Shown here piece after piece: positions 659-20,995 of a stretch of 64,000 nt of DNA (positions are counted from its first letter, which is position 1; the number at the start of each line of letters is the position of its first letter). Both the position numbers and the translations under genes were made by a program. The notes below the pieces were generated by a model. It searched no databases and was not told the origin of the DNA. It was given only the letters and a program-made list of their open reading frames with translations. The stretch is from Lingula anatina (lineage: Eukaryota > Animalia > Brachiopoda): NCBI GenBank assembly GCA_051362555.1, contig CM120642.1, positions 30,876,001-30,940,000 of the forward strand, read 5' to 3'.

Positions 659-3554
659 CGGTGAACTCTAGAGGTAGAATATGTAGAGTTATAACAGGAT
701 GGTCTCCTCCGAGCAACGTTCCCTGTAGGTTGATCACGTGGACTTCCTTGCGACTAGGAGTGATATTAGAACTTACGCACCCTCCAGATGGCGTGAGCTG
801 CTCGTAGACAGGAGAGACGTAGGGAGAGGAATAAGGATAGGTGATGGCACACTTCGATGCAACTTCAGGGGCTGAAATTGAAAAAGAAGACGAAGTTGTT
901 AATTGAGATGCATTCATTCCATGAAACAAAGCAATCTCTCTGGGTATGTGAGAACTCTAAGATCTCACACAACGTATACAACTTAAACTTATAGTTTAAA
1001 TTTTCAGCAAGAACAAGATATCACTAAATAATTAGAAATTGGCAAAAAAAAATGTAATGCAAGAAAAAAAATCCTTATTTACATTCACCAAAGTTCAAGT
1101 GTTTATTTTGCACAATTAGCAAAACCTGCACATTAACAAAATATGCTGAAGAAGGCAAGGCACTCATCATAATAAGTTCCACAAGCCTGGTTACATGCCA
1201 AAAATTATTTGGGATATGCACATATTAATTGATTGAAAAAGGTATTATCACAAATATGTTACCTAAATCTTCAATGAAGAAGTCATATGCTATTCTAACT
1301 TATGTCCTATTCTAAAACAACCCACTCATTTTATATTATACACTGAAAAGAAGCAAAACCATATCATCAAACATATTTAAAAAGTGTGTAATGGGGGGGG
1401 GGGGGGGGTTGGCAATCTGCACGCATGAAATAATAGAAAGTGTGAAGATATCAATACTGTGTAAACACACAACTAGGCAAAAATCCATACAGCTGGGCTG
1501 AAATTTATTGCTCAATTTGTAACATAGAACATGGACTGTACACAGAGCTGGCTGAAGGTCTCCATACAGGGATGGATTTCTTAACACTTACAATGACTGT
1601 TAATTATGTGCTAAGCGCACCAATTTAAACAATATCCAAGATTTTTTTTTCACTTTTATTTAGTTTTGAAGCAATATCAGTCATCAAGGGGACCACAGGA
1701 TCAAGATTAATCGATTTTTGATGCAAAATGGCAAAGTAAGCTATAATCTTCAGAAAAAAAAATACACCATGTTTTCTTTGGTAAATTTCATATTTTGATT
1801 TCAAGAATTTATATAATTTACATCTTTATTTTCAAAAGTTACAATCTCAACCATTCTATGAAAAAGAAAGAAGTCAGGCTGAGGACACTTGGCACAGGCC
1901 TCACTAGGATAGCTTATTGCTCTTGAAATTGGCATCAGGTCAACCAATAGTACATTCCACTCTGACCTCTTCCATCAAACTAAACAGAACGATGCAACTA
2001 AAAGACAAAAATAAATGTCAACACAGCTATTTAGTGTATTTCAAAACGAAATTTCTTTACAGTTACTCAAATTTCTGATTCCCTTTTCAGCCTATAACAA
2101 AATAACGTGCATGCATGTGCGTGTGCATACACAAGCATTCTTCACATTTTCTCTTCCACAACAAGTTAAAACATCAAGTGGACATACATACATACAGACA
2201 ATACGTGGGCCATATTCACAACCAATGCTGATTCTCAGACCAACAGATCAGCAGACCAAATTACTGTAGCAGGTTGGCCATATCTGATCTGTGGATATAT
2301 ATGATTCCGTGGATCAACTCGTCCTGAATGCACCAAAGGTGCCATCCAATATGTTTCTAATGCCAGTATGTGGTAAAAGTATGACTAACCTATACTTAAA
2401 ACAAACTCAATTTACATCAAAACAATCTGATCAGCTTCCAACACATCCCCTTAGTAAAACGCAAAGTTTGTAGCAAATTTACAAGAGCATCTAAGGTTTG
2501 CAGCAAAATTGCAAGAAGTCTTCATATATATATTCTTTCAAATTTAAAACAAATCTCATTTGTATGGCAAAATCCTTGCAAATTTGCAGAAAATTTGCAG
2601 CCACAGTTTGCAAATAAGCCTAAAATTTTGCTATGGGTCGACCTTGGAATTCTAAATCCCATGTCAAGCGATTTGGTCATCAGTAATCTCAGTTTTAATA
2701 CAGCCAGTATGAGTTCCTGACCTCGCACTCAGTAACCGCTCTATAAATACAGAGAAATTACTCTCAAATAATGTTTACTCTCCTTCTGATCTCCATTATG
2801 ATTTTGTCAAACCTCCTCACCACGTTTGACCGTAAATTGACCCCTTCCTTTTGACCAGCGATGTAATGGTCATTCCGACTCAATGGCCGGGCTGTATGAC
2901 CTTTCAAAATAAACCAACTTATTTAAATTCAAGATATTACTAATGCAAGCTATGTTTTGTATGAAGCAGAACTTGGAAAACTTGACCAGCTTGGATATAA
3001 TGGAAAATTGCCATCGTATTTATATAGGCTATGTTGTTACACAACTAGGGTCCATATTTCTAAAGGACTAAGCACTAGTGGGTCACAAAGGTTATGTAAT
3101 TCATAGCACAGGGCCACATTTAACAAAAGACCCAGAGTCTTAAGTTGGCCTGAGCTATAAGAGCGAAAATTTTGGTCTACTTAAATGCAGGCTAAATCCG
3201 TAGTAGTACACTTAAATACTGGTATTAGTCACTCTACACAAAAAGTAGGAATAGCTGATGTTTTAGACCAACAGTAACTTTTTTAGTTCAGTGTTCTTCA
3301 ACAGACTTATTGCAGTTTTCAGTACACTATGTCTGAAAATAAGGACATTCTTATGCCCAAAGTTCTTTGGTGAAACGTGGGCCAAGCCAACAGAATAAGT
3401 TAAAGGGTGCAGTGTTCCAAGCATGTGGTTCTCTGTGACCCCCCCCCCCCCCCTCCACAAATACACACACTCACACACACACACACACTCACTCAGTTTC
3501 ACACACACACACTCACACACACACACACACACACATAAACACACACACATTCAC

Positions 3555-3594
<40 letters not shown>

Positions 3595-3800
3595 TCACAC
3601 AGTTTCACACACACACACACACACACATACACTCACATAAACACACACACTCACAGTTTCACAAATACAGTTACACTTACATGTATTCACACACACATAC
3701 ACATACTCACACACATACAGTTTCAAACATACAGTTTCACATACACTTACACACACACACACACACACACACAAAGAGAGAGAGAGAGAGAGAGAGAGAG

Positions 3801-3836
<36 letters not shown>

Positions 3837-6800
3837 CTGAATACCTCCAGGTCAATAACCTTAGGCTCTCTATTTACGTAACTGGCACACACTGACAGTA
3901 ATGTGCATACCTTGACCTACCTCTATTTGCCATGCTAGTAAAACCATGACCCCATTTAAAAAAATATTCTTGATGTACACATTTGAACTGTCTCCAGTAT
4001 ATATGATTCTAGTAATAACAGTTGGCTGAAACAGTACTGGTGGCTATTGTAATGAGCAAGGGGAGCTTCACAATTTTTTCTTGCACATGACACACAATTC
4101 ACCATCAATAAGCTGTAAATATTCTAAACTTGTTTTGCAACATTTACTCACAAATTGAACAATTACACATTTATATTGCATTGTAAATGGCCCTTTTGTC
4201 CTGAAAAAAAAAAGGTTTTCAGTTGAACCATTTCGTGAAAATTCCTTGACAAATAAGAGTAGAAAAGGGCTGTGGAATGTTGACAATTGATATGTTGATT
4301 TACATGTAAAAAAATCAAGAAAGACAGATGAAGGTGTTACCCTTCATTCCCTTGCTTTTTTTTCATCAACACTTCAAATAAAAAGTGACAGAGATTGCAA
4401 TTCAAACTGTTTGCTATTTAGTTCCAAAAGGGGTTGTTTATGCATGGGACAGTAACGTGTGACACTGGTTTGATGAGATAATTAACAGGAATCCATCAAA
4501 ACGCCACACCCACTTAATATTCCATAACTATATTATCCGTATATAACAGTGTAAAGCGGGGTTAAACAGCCCAAACTGGCATGGTCATGCCTGACCTAAT
4601 TCTAGCCCTACCTGGCCTTGTCCTACACTCTACCAAGGGGACAGATTGACTTTTCACAAGATATTCCCAGATAATTTGTGTCTTTAGATAAATAGACAGA
4701 CATTTGATTCTCTGCTTTTTGAAATTTGCCTATTATGCTTGGTCATATTTGCTGCTATTCATGCCTGGACTAATTCTATACCAAATTAGCTTAATCATAT
4801 CTAGCTTTATTCTAGTCCCAACTTGCCTACACCTTAATGAAAATTCACATTTTTTTTCACTATTCCAGTCTGTTCTGTAATCTGTTCAATAGGCTAACAA
4901 TGTTCCCTTTTCCCTAGATTAATTTTATGACCTTTATGTAGAATCCATCTACCACCTTTTTGTACATATTTCGTTATTTTTAACCTGCCATCCAACAGTG
5001 GGGGTCATATTGCCAGGCCCGTAGCCAGGGGGGGGGGGTTCGAAAGAACTGCCCTTTTTGCTGGGAAAAGGTCCACTTTGGATAAAATTTGATCTAGGTA
5101 CATGAAGGTTTTATGATAAAAGGTCCACTTTTTCAGAAAACGAACCCCCCATTTGAAATTGCTGGCTACGGGCCTGTATTGCCATTATTCTGTTTTTGGT
5201 CCTGTCCAAAAAAAAATCCATTTTCCATAATTCAATGATTATTTTGATATAAAATTTCATCACCATTCTCATCCAGTGCAAGCGTAAAAGCTACCTATGG
5301 TGTTTTTTCCTCCCAAGATATTCCAACCCTCACAATCTCTCATTCTTGACATCACCCCTATGACCTGAAAACTAACTCCACATTCCACGATGAGGTCAAG
5401 ACCCAAAAGAGGACCAACCAATTATGTCCTCACATTTTGCGGTGACGTGCTGGTGGAATAATTTAGGCTGCATTTACTGAAGCAAGTGATGCAAAAAGAC
5501 CATAGACTGACTCAGCCCTGTGAGGTTAAAATATGTTTATTTTTCTTTACTTCTAGGGTACTTGTTCAAGTTATATTATGATTAACAATTTTTTCATGTA
5601 CTGAATTTCAAAGAACAGTAAACCAATTGTACTTTATTTGATTTTAAGCCAAGGGCAGTATCAATCACTGCTGCACTGGTTACATATCAACTTTTCTTTC
5701 TACAGATCTATTTTTTACAAGTCCAAGTATGCCAATTTGTTTTCTAAACAAGTCTAACTGATATCATATGTCGACATTTTTAAAAACTAAACTGCCTCTT
5801 TTTTACATGACAGAAATGTTGAGGCTCAAATGACTGTAAAAACCACAGAATATTTCATGCTACATAAAAATAAAATCTAACTAGACAAAGAAAAGCAATG
5901 GTAAAATTGGTTCTGATTACAGATTATGATTTTTCATCTTTTCTCAAAAACCAGTCCACTTCAGTCCCTGCCCAAAACCTTTCAGCCTAATTGGCCTTTG
6001 GGCCCCAAAGCAGAGCACACTGGCCTAAAGGTGATTGGATAATAATGGACACTATCAATTTAAGCAATTAAAATGGTGCCATTTTGGATAAAAAGGTGAG
6101 CAGGATGCGCGATGTTTCCTCTGAGTATTCTGTGGTTTGTCATAAAGTGAGTTTTTGAGTTTATAAGATGAAATTTTTTTGAACACTTCATAAGTGCTTT
6201 CATAGATTTTGTACCACCAAAGTTGCCATCAAGCCTGTAGGGCCAGTATATACAAAGGGCTTTTAAACTATTTCAATTATGGCAGGAACATCTCAGAGGC
6301 AGAAATTACATTAATCTTTCAAAGGTCTCATCTCTTAAATTATGCTTTAATCATAAAATTCAGAAAATCACCATTGCCTTTTCTCTCTCTTTCACCTTTA
6401 TGGGCACATGACACCTACATGATACTAACATGTTGCTATGGTTCAGACATGTAGTTGGTTAAGCAAGAATAACTGAGAATCAGCCACCTTGAAACCAATA
6501 CTTTTAAAAAGGCATTTATTCCTTATGCAAATAAGTAGAAAAATGAATGAAAAGAGACATTTTTTGCTATGTTTGATAATTAGGTCATTGACATAGTGGC
6601 GGTAGGGAGTCACCCAGACGACCCGTTATGCATACGTAGATCGCGAACTGCGTTTATGTACGAATGAGGCACAGCTGGAAATGACGTAATTATTAAAGGT
6701 GGCTGGAAAATAGCGCCGCTAAGGACTGGATTTGAACTAGCGGAAAAACGTTTTGAAGACAGACTAAGCGGAAAGGAGGAAAAAGGACTTAGAAAAGAAG

Positions 6801-9800
6801 CTGACGGGGAGGGAGGAGGTGAACGAAATAAAGTGAGAGACTTACCGATCTGCTACTTTAGCTGTACTCAAACACTGTCCTCTATTGTTGTACGTATAGT
6901 AGTAAGCGTTGTCGACGGCTGCACGTCTCTCTATAGTTGACCGCTCGTGCCGGAGGCTGGATACGATCTGACCGCTACTGCTAAGATCTTCAACGCGCAC
7001 ATGTGGGTCACATGTCAATTAGGACGCGTAACGATTGGTCAAGATGATGTAAGAAGTGCGGTAGAGGCACAAGTGGCTGTATAACGGCGCCAGGGCGACT
7101 CCCTACTTATTATGTAACGTCATAAATGGGATTGCGTCTAAGGCCGCAATCTTGTATTTATTCCTTATGCAAATAAGTAGAAAAATGAATGAAAAGAGAC
7201 ATTTTTTGCTATGTTTGATAATTAGGTCATTGACATAGTGGCGGTAGGGAGTCACCCAGACGACCCGTTATGCATACGTAGATCGCGAACTGCGTTTATG
7301 TACGAATGAGGCACAGCTGGAAATGACGTAATTATTAAAGGTGGCTGGAAAATAGCGCCATGAAAACGCCAGGACATGTGTAGCATGTACCTGGGGTTTT
7401 TCCGCCACCCAAAAAATGTAAATAAAGAAAAAACACCTATAATGAGATATGAACAATTTAATTATTGAACATTGATGCGTATATGAGAGGAAAAGGATAT
7501 TTAATTTAGTTTTGAAGTACCTGGAACTGTGTTGTAAAGTCCTTTGGTAAAATTTTTTGCGTATCAGTCCTTTGCTCTATAACAATATAAGCGTATAAAG
7601 TTGTTGTAAAACTATGCTGTCTTTTAAAAATGCTTAAACCACTGCAATCAGTAGAGGGGAAGTGACAAGTCCATGCTCCTATAGACGTATGTATATCTTT
7701 AACGTAATCGGAGCGTCGTCGCCCCGAAGGGTCAGTTGGTCGTACATACCCTTGCGTTTCAGTATATGAGTTCTATAACGAAATAAACGTATAAAATTGA
7801 TGTAAAGTAAGCTATCGCTTATAAATACATAAATCTCCTGTAATCGGGAAAGAAAAGAGTCTAGTCAATGGTTCTAAAAGCGGATGTATTTCTTGAAAGC
7901 GTTGGAGCGCCATCGCCCCAACGAACGGATCTGTTGGTCGGACATACCCCTGCTAGCAGCTAAGGTTGCGCCCCCGATACGAAAACTATGACTTCTTATG
8001 TTCGTGTTAGCGATTGAAGCGGACGCAAGGCATACTTGTAAGGCTCTGTTGAATTGGGAACGCCTCACTGGAGACCCGTCCTGATTTACGAAGAGGTGGG
8101 GGTAGGTGGAGGCCGGGCGGGCTTGGAGGTAAGCTTTACAGATGGACACCGGGCATATCGTAGGTTGCGAGATGATTGAAATCTGGAAGTTAGAGGTGAC
8201 TGATGAGTGTTTAAACGATCCAAAGGTTAGAGTCAGTTGATGGCTGGTCTGATCGTAACGTAGATCGTCCCGTAAGAGCGTATGAGGCGATGGTCCTGCC
8301 GTGATCTCACTAATGCGCAGTAAGCCGAAAAAGGCTAAAGAGAACATGGCCTTGTACAGGATTGCATTGTAACTCGAATCGAAAGCGTGTGAGGCGGCGG
8401 ATACGAGTTTTTCAAGGATAGGTAGAGTGATTGGCAGGCGTGTGTCCTGAGAAGGCTGTAGTCTCTGTAAGCCCTGAAGCGTCTGACGCACCAGGTAAGT
8501 GGCTGTGGGGTCCGTCATATTTCGCATTTTGTATCTGTAGCTTAAAGCTGACATGAAAGTTTTTATGGAGTTGGGCTTATAGCGGATCGCCAAATATTGA
8601 GCAAAGAGCGCCGTTATCGTAGCGTCTGCGGGGAAGGGTACTAAACCGGTGGACGCCTGAAAATCCTGTAATAGGTTGTCGATTTTTCCGTACGAACGTC
8701 GCGTTGAAGGGGCCAAGGCTGCGTTGATTGTATTGTTTAGTCGGCCAGTAAGATCTCGGGTGACAGATGACTGGGCAGCGGAACGGGATGGGGTGTGGCT
8801 GTCGTTTGCGTAGAGCGGAAAGTCTGAAAATCGAAGCGAGAAAGAGCGTCAGCTGCGACGTTGTCAGAACCTGGAATATGTTCGGCTTTGAATAGAATGT
8901 TGTAGGATAACGCAACAAGGGTTAGTTTGCGAAGTAAGCGGAGAATAACTTTTTCTTTTGTCGAACATTTGTTTAGAACGTATACTAGCGCTTGATTGTC
9001 TGAATGAACGATGACTTTTTTGTGAGCGAAAGTGTCACGCCATAGGCTGAAAGCTGCCACTATAGGATACATTTCAAGAACGGCTATGTTTAATTGCTTC
9101 AAGTGATCAGCCCAGGGTCCCCAGAACCACAGAGAGTTGAGTATCGCGCCGAACCCATGTTGGCTAGAAGCGTCGGTGTACAGGTGAAGGGTGTTCGAAC
9201 CTTCCCATGCGTCGTCGTGGAAGAAACCTCTTCCGTTGAACTCGAGTAGAAAACTTCTCCACATATTCAGGTCGGCTCGAGATTCGCTGTTAAGACGGAC
9301 TTTGAAGTATGGTTTAGAGACCCCTATTGTCAAGTTTATGAGTCTGCGAAGGAAGGCTCGGCCAGCGGGAATGATGTAGCAGCAGAAATTTAAGAGACCA
9401 ATGATCGACTGAAGCTCTTTCAATGTGATTTTCTTACTGCGGAGGTGAGACTGAATTAACTCTAAACACCTTGAGATTTTTTCGGCGGGAAGTCGGGCCT
9501 CTTGCTTTACAGAGTCTAGCTCAATGCCCGCGAACGTTATGGTCGTGGCCGGGTCAGTTGTTTTGTCTGCAGCGATGGGTATCCCGATGTCCTTGCACGT
9601 ATGAAGAAATTGTTGCAACTTGTTCGAACAACCTTGGTAAGAGCTTTCTACGACAAGGAAATCGTCTAGTAAGTGAGTCATGTGGGGAATGTCTAGCTTT
9701 GTAGCTGCGATCCACTGCAGTGCCGAACTAAGCTTTTCGAAGAGGCTGCATGAACACGAAAGACCCATAGGCAATGTTTTGTCGAAATAGAAAAACTGGC

Positions 9801-12800
9801 GATGTCGAAAGCCTAACAGAAAGCGGTAGTCTGGATGAATCGGAATGATACGAAAAGCATTTTCAATGTCTGTTTTTGCCATGAAGGCTCCCTTTCCAAC
9901 GGTCTTGACTAAGCGTATGGCGTCGGCGACTGTGGCGTATTGCACTGAAGAATGTTCTGGGTTAATGCCGTCATTAACCGAATGGCCTTCGGGGTGGGAG
10001 AGGTGGTGGATAAAGCGAAATTTGCCTGGGGAATTTTTGGGGACGACGCCGACAGGGGAGATTTTAAAATTTGGAAAAGGAGGGGTGGCGAGAGGGCCCA
10101 ATAAACGACCCGCTTGGACTTCGGTGAGAATTTTGTCGTCTAACGCTTGGGAAGTGTCGGAGGCGGACTGTAAGTTTTTAGTAGAATTTTGAGGGAGGGA
10201 ACCTGAAAAGGGGATTTTAAAACCTTCTGAAAACCCCGTAACTAGAAATTGAGACGTGACGATGTCGTAATTTGTGAGGTAACGTTCGAGGATCTGGGGT
10301 TTTACGGGGGTGGTGATGGACTGGTCCTGATTGTACGGCTTGTTTTGGAGAATGGCCTGCTGGAGAGGGGAACTAGAATCTTCGGAAGCTGGGTCTGGGT
10401 TGGTAGGGGGAAGGGCCGGAGGCTCGAAAGGAGTGGGATCGTTGGCGGGACATTTTGAATGGAGAGGGCTTTGACGAAAGTTGGGGGCAAGAGGAACGGG
10501 GGTGACTGCCCCTGCAGCCCATGCATTGGTGGGGGAAACGGCACGTGAGCGGGTTGCATGGCTGTCCCTCGTTCCAGCGAAAACAGAAGCCAGGTCTGGA
10601 GGCTGATTGTGGGACTTGGTCTTGATCACGTCTCGCAATGAAAGTGACCTCCGCCAATATAACTCCGTTAGGGTCCTCCCAGTTGAATCCAGGGGACTTT
10701 TGTTGTGCTCTGAACTTCTCGTCGTAGCGACGCCAATTAGGGAATTTGTTGGCCTGCATTTCGAGAATGCGGTTTGCGTAATGAAGGAGGCTCACTGCTT
10801 CCGTTGGGAAGCGCTGAAGGTGAATGACACTAAAAACGTGGAATGCGCACTGCCATTGATACGGGGTTATCGGAGACGAACGTTTGTGTGCAGGAGCCAA
10901 CTTAAACGAAATATTCCCGTCGTCGTCGACATTGGGCTGTGTAACGAGTTGTTGGGGCGTAGAAATTTCTGAAGAAGTAAGCGTATTTGACGAGGGGGGA
11001 AGGAGCGATTTCATATCCACGAACTCTTTAGCCCAGATTTTTTCCCTGAGGTTCTTGGGGACATGCTGGTCTAAAAGTGAATAGTGGCTCTTACCTTGAG
11101 AGCCCTGGTCCTGAGCCGGGCAGTGGAGGTGAGTGGGTGGCTGAAACTGTGCCTGGTTAGAAGAAGGATTACCCATGTAACCCTGAGAGGACGAAGGACC
11201 GGGATTAGAGGCGTAACCCGTGTTACCCTGTGACGACTGACGAACTTGAGACTGGGCTGGGTTACCCATGTAACCCGGGTTACCCATGTAACCCTGAGGG
11301 AAGGGAGAGTGTGTTGTGGCAAAGAAACCCAAGTTACTCTGCGACGACGTGGAAGGCTGGACATGTCCGGAGTTACCCACGAAACCCTGCGTGGTAGGCA
11401 GCTGAGATGGGGCAGAGTAACCCATGTTACTCGGCACTGCCCTTACAGCCTCTTGACTCCCGGTGTGTAAAGGTGCTTGGCCGTGCAGGGACACCTGACC
11501 CTGGATAGGATTACCCATGTAACCCTGTGAGGTGCCAGGTGGTGGGCTGTTTATGACACCCTGAGTAGCTGTATTGCTTGTGTGCGCATCTGATATCAGC
11601 GATCCGCTAGAGGGAATTGGGTTTGAGGCGGCGGCTGCTGCTCGTGGCGAGCTGTTTTGCCTGTGTTGATGCGCGACCTGCACGTTTGCGTCCGTCATAA
11701 CGGCGGTCGCGTATTCCCCGTGTTCCTGCAAGGCTTGAAGGAAGGAGAATCCTTCCATGGGAGGTGCAGGGATGTGAGGAAGTTGGCTCATGGTCTGAAA
11801 TAGAGAATGAATTGTTGTGACTCCCTGAGCAGAGATTTTAGCCCTGCCAGCTATGTGGGTGAGTGGGGGAGGGTGTCTGTATGTGTGAGTTTGTTTTATG
11901 TGAGAGGAGTAAAAAGATGGAAAGGTTCCGCTAATATGACGAGCAACGTACGTGAACGGATGTGTAAATAGTGGAACGTGATAAAATGTAACGAACTATT
12001 GCGATAACGTGTAACGAGCATAACGGGAACAGTAACGAATCTAGCCGTGATAACGTGTAACGCATGCGGCATAGTAACGGATGTAGCATGTAACGAATTA
12101 ACGTACGTAAGTATAACGTGTTTCATTGTGCGGAAAGTAATCTGAAAACGTGTAACTTAATGTGGCATGTCTGTAGTGAGTATAACGGGAAAATGTAACG
12201 AATCTAACGGTAATAACGTGTAACGTATGTAGCTTAATAACGGATGTAGCATGTAGTGAAATAACGAACGTAAGTATAACGTGTTTCAGTGTGCGGAACG
12301 TAATCTGAAAACGTATAAATTAATGTAGTATGAAACGTGTAAACCATGTAACGAATGAGACGAGATAATATAAAACGTATGTGGCGGTGATAGGAGATAG
12401 CGACTGCAGAATGTGCTACGATGTAACGAAAGGCCATGAAAACGTGAAACGTACGCAACTATTTAAACAGAAGCGAATCAAAAGAATAAAATGATGGCAA
12501 CGTGTGTAACGTAACGGAATGCGTATAATTATTATAACCTGAATAAACAATAAAACTAAATATAGTTAGTAGGCGACTTGATGCAAGGAGCGTGGTATAC
12601 TCACGCAGATGACGTCGCGAATGGATTACAGCGCCCCGTATCGATCGCCAGAGACGTTTTCGTCCCCGTGTGTTCAGATGAACTCCGTCGGAGCAGAGGA
12701 CGTCTTTCCACGCATCTTGGATTCCCACGTGTTTCCAGAAGTGTGCTCGTGACTTGGTTGAAAGTTGTCTTCGTAGTTCGTCGTTGATAACGTCGACTTG

Positions 12801-15244
12801 GCCATTGAAAGATTCCTGGTCCGATTCCTGCTTCAGGTAACCCCTCTGTTTGTATGCTCGAGGGTAAAGCTGGCCCCAGTATAAGTGAATGCGACGGTTA
12901 CGGCGGAGGATTTCATCAATTAAGAACAGGATGGAACGGATGACTGGTGTGGGATCGTGGCCAAGGCGAATGTCATTTTCACCCAACTGACAATATATGA
13001 AGTCGGCTGAGGAAACGGCGCTCCAAAGATCGGGAAATTGCCACATGCTGTGGACGTTAGCGCCACCACGCGCTAAGTAGCGTACTCTAGATCCAGCAAT
13101 ACCAAGATTGTTGGGAAGGTCACTGTCGTCCCGAAGTCGACGGATGAAACTATGTCCCATAACTACAACTTCCCGATTGTCTGGTTTCATGCTGAACGTA
13201 TGTGTACTAAGCTGCAAAGAATGAAGGAATAATGCGTGGGGTGAAGTGAGGGTATTGCGTGCTAAGACTTGGTAGTAGGAGGGGGTGTTGTAGAGACAAA
13301 AAGATGTGACTAGGCTATGAGCATCTGTTAAGTATTAAAGTCGGTTCTATTGAAGAGCTGGGTTAATGTGACGCTAATTAGCTCGTCCGGTGAAAGTTAC
13401 GTAATGACCTAAGTGATGTAAGCTTAGGTTACAGATTAGAGAAGACTTTGGAGCCATCTAATTAAACATGCATGTGTCCACAGATGTGGTGCGTGGGAAT
13501 GGCGTAAACATATCTGAACTGAAAAACGTATAGGAAGGCAAGTTTAAGCGTAAAAAGGGGCTATGTAATGTGTTACTAACGACTAATCTGTAGTGATAGT
13601 GTAAAGGTGAGCGTTCTAATAACGAGAGGGATGACTATCGGGGGTGAGGTTCATTAGCTACGGATGCGTAAAATATACTAGTGGACGTGTATTAATAATA
13701 AGCTTCACCTGCATGTCTATTAAGAGCTAACGAGCGGGGTATCTAATGTGACTAAACGAACTACCATACAGTTCTGAGTCCGGTGCTGAGATCCTGGAGT
13801 GGTAAGATCGACGATCGGAGGAAAAAACTCAACGTCCATCGGTGTTAAGTAACGACAAGAGATATAATGCCAACTGTAGACCATGATAACGTAACGAACT
13901 GATATTGAACGAAATAAAGTGAGAGACTTACCGATCTGCTACTTTAGCTGTACTCAAACACTGTCCTCTATTGTTGTACGTATAGTAGTAAGCGTTGTCG
14001 ACGGCTGCACGTCTCTCTATAGTTGACCGCTCGTGCCGGAGGCTGGATACGATCTGACCGCTACTGCTAAGATCTTCAACGCGCACATGTGGGTCACATG
14101 TCAATTAGGACGCGTAACGATTGGTCAAGATGATGTAAGAAGTGCGGTAGAGGCACAAGTGGCTGTATAACGGCGCCAGGGCGACTCCCTACTTATTATG
14201 TAACGTCATAAATGGGATTGCGTCTAAGGCCGCAATCTTGTATTTATACCAGAAGCCTAAATTTAGCACTTCCATCCCATAAATTTCAAATCTCATTTTA
14301 ATGCCCCTTCCTTATATGGGAAATAACAGAGATTCTGACCATCATAAAAACCCACTCTGCCCATTTTACATGCATACTGAGTTGCTGTCACGATACTAGA
14401 ATATCGGTAGTAAATCAATAATTCAACTACATAGTTCATTGTACGTATATGTATAAATCTTATTCAAGAACAGAAGCCATTAATATATGACAGCAAGTAT
14501 GGTTATAGCTGCCATCTTGTGGACAGTCCCCAACTGGATCTTTTCTCTCACAAATATGACCTTTATGTTTACAAGTTTATTGTTATCAATGAGAACAAAT
14601 ATCACAAAAGCCTGAAAAACACAGGTAAATAGTCCAGAAATTAGCATTCTATAAGCATCCCTGCCATGGACACACATACCAGCATAATTTGTTTACCAAC
14701 CACTGAGAAAGTTGAACCATTCAAGATTATTTTCCAAAATGGTATCAAAAATTATCAACATTTTCAACACTTAGAGAGCATTCACATCAAGAAGAGCCGA
14801 GGTCTAGCAAGGCCCAGAGCAAAATATGACTGACCTTCATGAAAGGAAGCCTGCCTAATCCTTTAACAGTCTATCAATGAATAAATTTGAAAATGGGAAG
14901 TTCAAGTATACAATTGATGATTCATTTGGCTTAAGTGAACATTTCTGTTATTCATTAACATAATATTAATGCTATTTATTTATCTTATGAACTTCATAAT
15001 CAGCATTTTATTAGCTTATTTACTTATTTCTATTATTTTATTATTGTTTTAGGGTCTCGGGGGCTCAATTCCTTTGTTTAAATTGTGTTGGGTTTTTAAC
15101 TTTATATACCAATTTTAGCACATTCCACACAAAAAGCAAACTGCCTGATCAAATATGTAAAGTGGAAGAACTTATGCGCATAAATAATCATCTGTAATTC
15201 TCTGCCAAGTTAACACACACTAATAAAAACTGACAGCAACCACA

Positions 15245-15306
<62 letters not shown>

Positions 15307-20886: not shown

Positions 20887-20995
<109 letters not shown>

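Follow-up and report, generated by a model that had tools for sequence, protein, structure and literature searches.

We analysed a 64,000-nt stretch of Lingula anatina DNA (contig CM120642.1, positions 30,876,001 to 30,940,000; hereafter the window), which carries an intact Ngaro-type tyrosine-recombinase (YR) retrotransposon on the minus strand at 6514-14247. Its frames are ordered, 5' to 3', SGNH, gag, pol (reverse transcriptase (RT) plus RNase H) and YR, and the YR frame has no ATG near its opening. Comparison with related elements suggests that the recombinase is probably produced as a 548-residue fusion of the N-terminal half of Gag to YR (Gag-N-YR), by a splice from a donor in gag at 11095 to an acceptor in the RNase H tail at 8823. 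This splice would cut away gag's conserved half together with nearly all of pol, its junction would be the main source of YR in this element, and the Gag-N part would bring YR to the particle or cDNA.

The YR frame (7874..8848, minus strand) lies -1 to pol, matches Pfam PF00589 (E = 2.6e-7) and has an intact catalytic R-K-H-R-W-Y set, the members of which (R178, K213, H287, R290, W313 and Y321) are invariant in 30 aligned YR sequences. Among the matches listed, its closest named relatives come from the brachiopod Lingula, at 51-55% identity. The frame is limited upstream by a TGA at 8851-8849 and is 324 residues long; its first in-frame ATG, at 8554, falls at residue 99, and a TTG at 8716 falls at residue 45. 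These positions, together with an acceptor at 8824, had been pointed out in an initial annotation of this DNA, and all of them hold. The same annotation had argued that a start at 8554 would cost the protein its N-terminal helical part. We agree that such a start would truncate YR, because residues 33-98 are conserved (Y53, P73 and F82 among them) and in relatives this part matches a SAM-like core-binding domain.

The acceptor within the RNase H tail

The predicted YR acceptor (8823..8853, minus strand) combines a branch-like CTGAC, in which the frame-closing TGA of YR is contained, with a pyrimidine tract free of AG and a CAG whose AG is 8825-8824; the exon runs from 8823. In relatives the corresponding position is occupied by the RNase H 'SR-x-Q' codons; in the element studied here, pol ends 32 codons past this 'SR' motif. 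We compared the site in two sets of related loci. The first was taken from metagenome contigs (the best 80 of 560, or 81 with the window), of which 59/81 have the RNase H motif D-x-L-S-R and a YR in the -1 frame; 55 were left after removal of near-duplicates, the window included. The second set, assembled with unchanged criteria, comprised 55 contigs from prokaryote assembly bins, probably host DNA, and yielded 27 testable loci. No ATG stands ahead of the first YR helix in 33/55 elements of the first set and 18/27 of the second (51/82 pooled).

In the first set, a CAG occurred within four codons past the RNase H 'SR' in 53/55 loci. Gln codons at the acceptor site were 59 CAG to 4 CAA, compared with 314:384 in upstream pol (p = 4e-15, a value overstated, as are the other p-values, since the relatives share ancestry; the elements span 26-44% YR identity), and no such bias was found at codon +8 of the same overlap (8:7). 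The Ser of the motif was encoded by TCN in 55/55 loci (background 1101:381) and the Arg by CGN in 53/55 (563:448), while in 48/55 the first AG coincided with the end of a pol codon, at +6 or +12. The second set showed TCN and CGN in 27/27 each, and a CAG within four codons in 18/27, with four more at the fifth codon. When all 82 loci were pooled, 76 had an AG closing one of codons +1 to +5, and a C preceded it in 75/76.

Codons ending in AG were avoided ahead of this point. With a non-T base in front, they numbered 2/93 at the site against 106/244 past the acceptor, where the sequence is dual-coding, and because the difference holds without a preceding T it is not mere avoidance of TAG stops in the YR frame. 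From the first AG onwards the YR frame was open in 55/55 and 26/27 loci (median length, 36 codons), compared with 12% of control windows (428/3513). Branch-like YTRAY was present in 30/55 loci against a background of 23%, an excess that follows partly from the Ala-Asp codons. These patterns strongly suggest that the acceptor is under selection and has been kept across relatives; the initial annotation had staked its proposal on such conservation, and the acceptor signals are found across 82 elements.

The Gag donor, database models and RNA

The gag ORF (10373..11791, minus strand; ATG 11791, 472 aa) has a low-complexity N-terminal half, residues 1-232, and a conserved domain from about residue 240; it gave no Pfam match and was assigned from its position and from matches in related loci. 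The predicted YR donor, in phase 1 (11089..11098, minus strand; exon ends 11095, intron from 11094), is placed where this low-complexity half ends. Both this donor and a second phase-1 donor, at the end of the SGNH ORF (12605), had been proposed to join YR in frame, and we confirmed that both joins are open, giving 548 aa and 511 aa, respectively, a coincidence not much above chance. Because phase 1 is the default for donors within a reading frame, in-frame joining is weak evidence: strong donors in gag frames outside our test window are in phase 1 in 17/21 cases, and phase 2 would create a stop.

Two other comparisons bear on the donor. The gag donor zone was defined relative to the point where the conserved Gag domain starts, from 80 codons before it to 10 codons after, and 25 loci were examined, of which four were redundant and one lacked the anchor. 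Strong phase-1 donors were found in this zone in 12/20 loci, compared with 5.7 expected from synonymous shuffles (P = 0.0013). In addition, protein searches with YR (best 120 of 477 and 10 of 10 matches listed) included ten RefSeq models in which a low-complexity, Gag-like N-terminus precedes a full YR. Four of these are from Lingula (for example XP_013416314.1), with one each from Acanthaster, zebrafish (XP_009304434.1; four near-identical proteins), goldfish (XP_026138202.1), Xenopus (XP_031747536.1), Dendropsophus (three accessions) and the gecko Paroedura (XP_077156397.1). The N-termini of both fish models contain a HeH/LEM match.

The Lingula model XP_013416314.1 also includes a pol tail, on whose -1 frame its YR linker could be placed: 28/28 residues agree from the acceptor onwards, with 15 in the next best register, and the linker starts right after the acceptor Gln; ahead of the acceptor 3/10 residues fit. 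Since the fit begins at this point, the model is spliced at the same RNase H acceptor. A GYMGN-type motif is present in three copies in its N-terminus and in five in the Gag-N described here. For the nine other RefSeq models we used a five-residue register test, which gave 5/5 in six and 4/5 in three, a weak test given that each is the best of 30 registers. The donor zone and the models moderately support the predicted Gag donor.

Six of nine listed RNA runs were compared with the window, 6-30% of each being read, and a joint was listed from three reads upwards. Three runs of one study gave reads at 99% identity and a depth of ~1-5, mostly in a sense-compatible direction (for the usual stranded library). 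Three reads of run X3 depart exactly at a consensus donor in the leader of repeat A (13926..13935, minus strand; exon ends 13932, intron from 13931), which is repeated at 6845 in A2, and continue in sequence from outside the stretch. Because they leave exactly at 13932, we conclude that the spliceosome acts at this leader donor, though the site may be that of another copy or of repeat A2. A two-read joint at 7826/10440 in X3 was rejected as a splice, as it has no GT-AG ends on either strand. Sense depth in X1-X3 was ~1.9 over YR and ~0.4 over RT/RNase H, a difference that is uninformative given the 3' bias of poly(A) libraries and the high depth at 10064-10507. These RNA data are too shallow for choosing between donors.

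Several observations weigh against the production of YR through 11095>8823. An ATG does stand ahead of the first helix in 22/55 relatives, and in P0001, P0002, P0004 and P0121, the proteins closest to this one, there is a Met where the YR core starts. The CAG bias was weaker in the second set (20:7 vs 217:203, p = 0.028). The gag donor zone was chosen post hoc, and repeating the count under a fixed rule gave 10/24 loci against 6.5 expected (P = 0.063); the donor position is also spread over ~80 codons. The RefSeq models are predictions, BLASTP of their N-termini against this Gag-N was not significant (best E = 0.13), and XP_013416314.1 (P0123) is an odd model in which Gag-N and YR are followed by an RNase H tail, probably because it derives from a tandem or rearranged copy. 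In the six runs, at a depth of ~1-5, no splice joint of any kind was listed, 11095>8823 and 12605>8823 included, and ten X2 reads run over 8843, which lies to the intron side of the YR acceptor; unspliced RNA thus exists, as genomic RNA requires. Of the initial suggestion that YR might be made as a spliced Gag-N fusion, then, the comparative side has good support from the acceptor, the donor zone and the RefSeq models, and the RNA supplied no junction.

Other routes to the recombinase and the SGNH ORF

An independent start of YR, either on an RNA in which a leader or upstream exon is spliced to 8823 or by reinitiation after pol, and using TTG 8716, ATG 8554 or another near-cognate codon, appears quite unlikely. 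The leader donor is used, as its three reads indicate, past the acceptor no frame has an ATG earlier than 8554, and the early Met of the 22 relatives and the closest proteins would suit such a start. Initiation at 8554, however, would yield the truncated protein described above, the early ATGs of relatives lie at scattered positions, most of them derived from a Trp or Cys codon of pol, and the frame is kept open for ~36 codons ahead of the core. Internal initiation may occur above all in relatives with Met at the core start. A programmed -1 frameshift from pol into YR within the overlap, giving a Pol-YR polyprotein, is a proposal in print, as quoted in the accessible text of PMC13003380. YR does overlap the end of pol in the -1 frame in 59/81 loci and is open there, and unspliced RNA crosses the site, yet strict slippery heptamers were found in the overlap in 2/55 and 1/27 elements and in none here, with 12.5 sites expected in the first set. 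As frameshifting would also leave unexplained the CAG-only Gln, the AG-free tract and the Gag-N-YR models, we consider it very unlikely.

As one of its two candidates, the initial annotation had proposed a splice that connects the SGNH ORF to 8823, with gag and pol left out; the esterase-recombinase made in this way would have 511 aa. The SGNH/GDSL hydrolase ORF (12459..13190, minus strand) starts at ATG 13190 and encodes 243 aa unspliced; its GHS, GxND and DGxH motifs are intact, blocks I, II, III and V (Ser, Gly, Asn, Asp-His) are present and conserved, and it matches Pfam PF13472 with E = 8.5e-7 and 30.1 bits, just below the cut-off of 32.9. A predicted acceptor (13211..13240, minus strand; pyrimidine tract and CAG) lies 21 nt ahead of its ATG. 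The phase-1 donor (12599..12608, minus strand; exon ends 12605, intron from 12604) follows codon 195, past which the tail is AT-rich (66% vs 49%). We examined the best 150 of 619 SGNH relatives, 143 of which have DGxH, with a median end 32 residues past it. A phase-1 donor signature at DGxH+26/27 is present in five of the six best relatives, the sixth being a RefSeq model joined there, and in 17/143 overall against 7.2 expected. The donor is thus likely real in the close clade.

Its likely partner here is the predicted gag acceptor (11794..11825, minus strand), 3 nt ahead of the gag ATG, because the close clade has three long SGNH models (Lingula XP_013405905.1 isoform X2; Owenia CAH1796822.1 and CAH1800863.1) that continue in the same way and with the same frame relation, entering the gag -1 frame at the start of gag. 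The resulting 12605>11794 product would have 257 aa, with its stop inside gag-N in another frame. Its lack of an obvious purpose speaks for the esterase-recombinase, as do the open join, the conservation of the donor in the close clade and a phase-1 donor at +29 in the distant locus L095. The long models, though, run into gag rather than YR, and phase 1 is the default for in-frame donors. Where distant loci carry SGNH ahead of gag, most have a stop ~30 codons past DGxH, yet they share the YR acceptor; a strong SGNH-end donor was found in 0/7 of those with a DGxH match (three with a weak GTTAG site) and in 1/4 others.

No relative was found in which SGNH precedes YR in one protein, as the initial annotation had asked: a YR motif is present in 0 of the 150 best SGNH relatives, and SGNH stands ahead of YR in 0 of 132 YR relatives. 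Among the latter the two occur together only in three Tegillarca hypothetical proteins, with SGNH behind YR. Longer SGNH-containing proteins numbered 0 of 974 candidates in a weak search, which overlooked the 434-aa relative P0135. As the main form of YR the esterase-recombinase is therefore most unlikely, and that part of the initial annotation is not supported. As a minor exon-skipping side product it is less improbable, though still unlikely. Similarly doubtful is an arrangement in which the YR exon is a last exon shared by the two phase-1 donors, with alternative splicing yielding both Gag-N-YR and esterase-YR, and in which the conserved SGNH-end donor would serve to carry the esterase onto the recombinase. 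Alongside the preferred 11095>8823 junction, the leader of repeat A would be spliced to 13211 (SGNH) or to 11794 (gag), and the SGNH-end donor would mostly join 11794.

Element architecture and known systems

The element is bounded by split direct repeats in the order A1 ... B1-A2-B2, both pairs being 100% identical. A1 (13906..14247, minus strand; 342 nt) forms the 5' end and is identical to A2 (6820..7161, minus strand; 342 nt); it is predicted to contain the promoter and an ATG-free leader, and the stretch 14030-13932 holds no ATG. B1 (7156..7359, minus strand; 204 nt) overlaps A2 by 6 nt, and B2 (6514..6717, minus strand; 204 nt) forms the 3' end. The 6 nt common to B1 and A2 (7156-7161), an AT-rich word, also start (14247) and finish (6514) the element. 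We regard this word as a candidate recombination core, and the pattern would fit insertion by a recombinase without target duplication.

The pol frame (8737..10791, minus strand) is +1 to gag, as in 19/20 related loci having both, matches PF00078 (RT) and PF17917 (RNase H), and has its first ATG at 9882, within RT. Split direct repeats, the order gag-RT/RNase H-YR, the -1 overlap of YR (8848-8737) and the lack of a methyltransferase (no Pfam match at E 0.1 in the element's proteins) are those of Ngaro-like elements. PAT-like elements also have split repeats, and it is the frame order and the lack of a methyltransferase that point to Ngaro. A DIRS-like (DIRS1) identity, with inverted terminal repeats and an internal complementary region, was rejected, because the repeats that flank the element are all direct.

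Retroviral env, foamy virus pol and Drosophila copia gag are made from spliced subgenomic RNAs, with the unspliced RNA serving as the genome. The element studied here would resemble these systems in drawing a downstream or unequal product from spliced RNA; in contrast to them, its counterpart of the integrase would be joined to one half of Gag, RT would be skipped, and the acceptor is coded in the RNase H tail. It also resembles the RefSeq models on Ngaro copies, with a Gag-like low-complexity N-terminus on a full YR and a junction register at the same RNase H site, but differs from them in the position of the gag donor; the models are filed as uncharacterized or proline-rich rather than as transposon products.

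The Xenopus elements DIRS-53_XT and DIRS-54_XT, described as Ngaro-like with an SGNH ORF of unproven function after YR, share with this element the A1...B1-A2-B2 repeats, gag, RT/RNase H, YR, the lack of a methyltransferase and the SGNH ORF, whereas here SGNH lies ahead of gag with its own ATG (PMC9210276, available text). The words 'splic' and 'intron' are absent from that text. Poulter and Butler (2015), as quoted in the accessible part of PMC13003380, called production of Ngaro YR by programmed frameshift probable; as in their Ngaro, the end of RT/RH here is overlapped by YR in the -1 frame, but this overlap has acceptor signals and no slippery sites. We found no description of splicing of Ngaro-type messages in the literature compared, which lay outside the Poulter group's 2004 and 2015 papers and supplements, and none in the portions available of PMC9210276, PMC7192593, PMC6681497, PMC8547959, PMC9341512, PMC3783388, PMC3266345, PMC13003380, PMC4157794 and PMC7599744. 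In the same partial texts only a 3' layout of SGNH was found described.

The element is thus of a known kind, and Gag-N-YR splicing as a means of making the recombinase is likely undescribed. How the overlapping frames of YR retrotransposons are translated has so far been a guess, namely frameshifting. If the splice proposed here is correct, an acceptor coded in RNase H and kept across animals defines the recombinase protein, misnamed 'proline-rich' RefSeq genes are explained as transposon products, and constructs of the recombinase that begin with the first Met would miss its natural N-terminus. A 5' SGNH with a clade-specific donor would be a second, smaller variant. An SGNH ORF that precedes gag and starts at an ATG of its own was seen in L006, L009, L014, L018, L029, L032, L064, L069, L092-L095 and L098, that is, in 8/80 and 5/55 fetched loci, and judging from these sequences this arrangement is common among the Ngaro elements of marine animals.

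Further potential splice sites were noted within the element. The AT-rich spacer between SGNH and gag (11795..12604, minus strand), a predicted intron, contains a 155-nt duplication at 86% identity (12010-12326), each copy of which is closed by an acceptor-like site (12304 and 12141). Only 24 nt past the Gag donor (11094-11071), a phase-1 acceptor-like site at 11070 marks the start of the conserved Gag domain, an acceptor at this place being in phase 1 in 6/20 relatives; joined to it, the SGNH donor would put SGNH onto the Gag domain in frame (427 aa). A strong acceptor-like site at 7837 lies 36 nt past the YR stop, where the SGNH donor would give an SGNH-only message of 203 aa with an 8-residue tail, and a pyrimidine-rich YAG occurs within 110 nt past the YR stop in 23/51 relatives, a count made without a control. 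Gag would be linked to Pol (872 aa) if a phase-0 donor-like site at 10796/10795 were joined to an acceptor-like site at 10359, but no such acceptor is kept in relatives. No conserved acceptor for pol was found in relatives, where acceptor-like sites are spread over all three phases, and a Met occurs somewhere upstream of the conserved pol start in 21/28 loci.

The window holds no second copy of the element, Rfam gave 0 matches, and of 27 stretches of viral contigs that fitted the search patterns none was a relative. Many reads of run X7 match short pieces of repeats A and B (7170-7360, 14034-14073) at 90-95% and then pass into different sequence, which suggests that there are related or non-autonomous elements. 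Contigs with animal-type YR retrotransposons (L081-L135), dozens in number, reside in prokaryote genome bins (symbiont metagenome-assembled genomes), probably as host contamination. In the host flanks, long CA and AT microsatellites lie at 3400-3870, 15244-15304 and 20889-20993 of the window.

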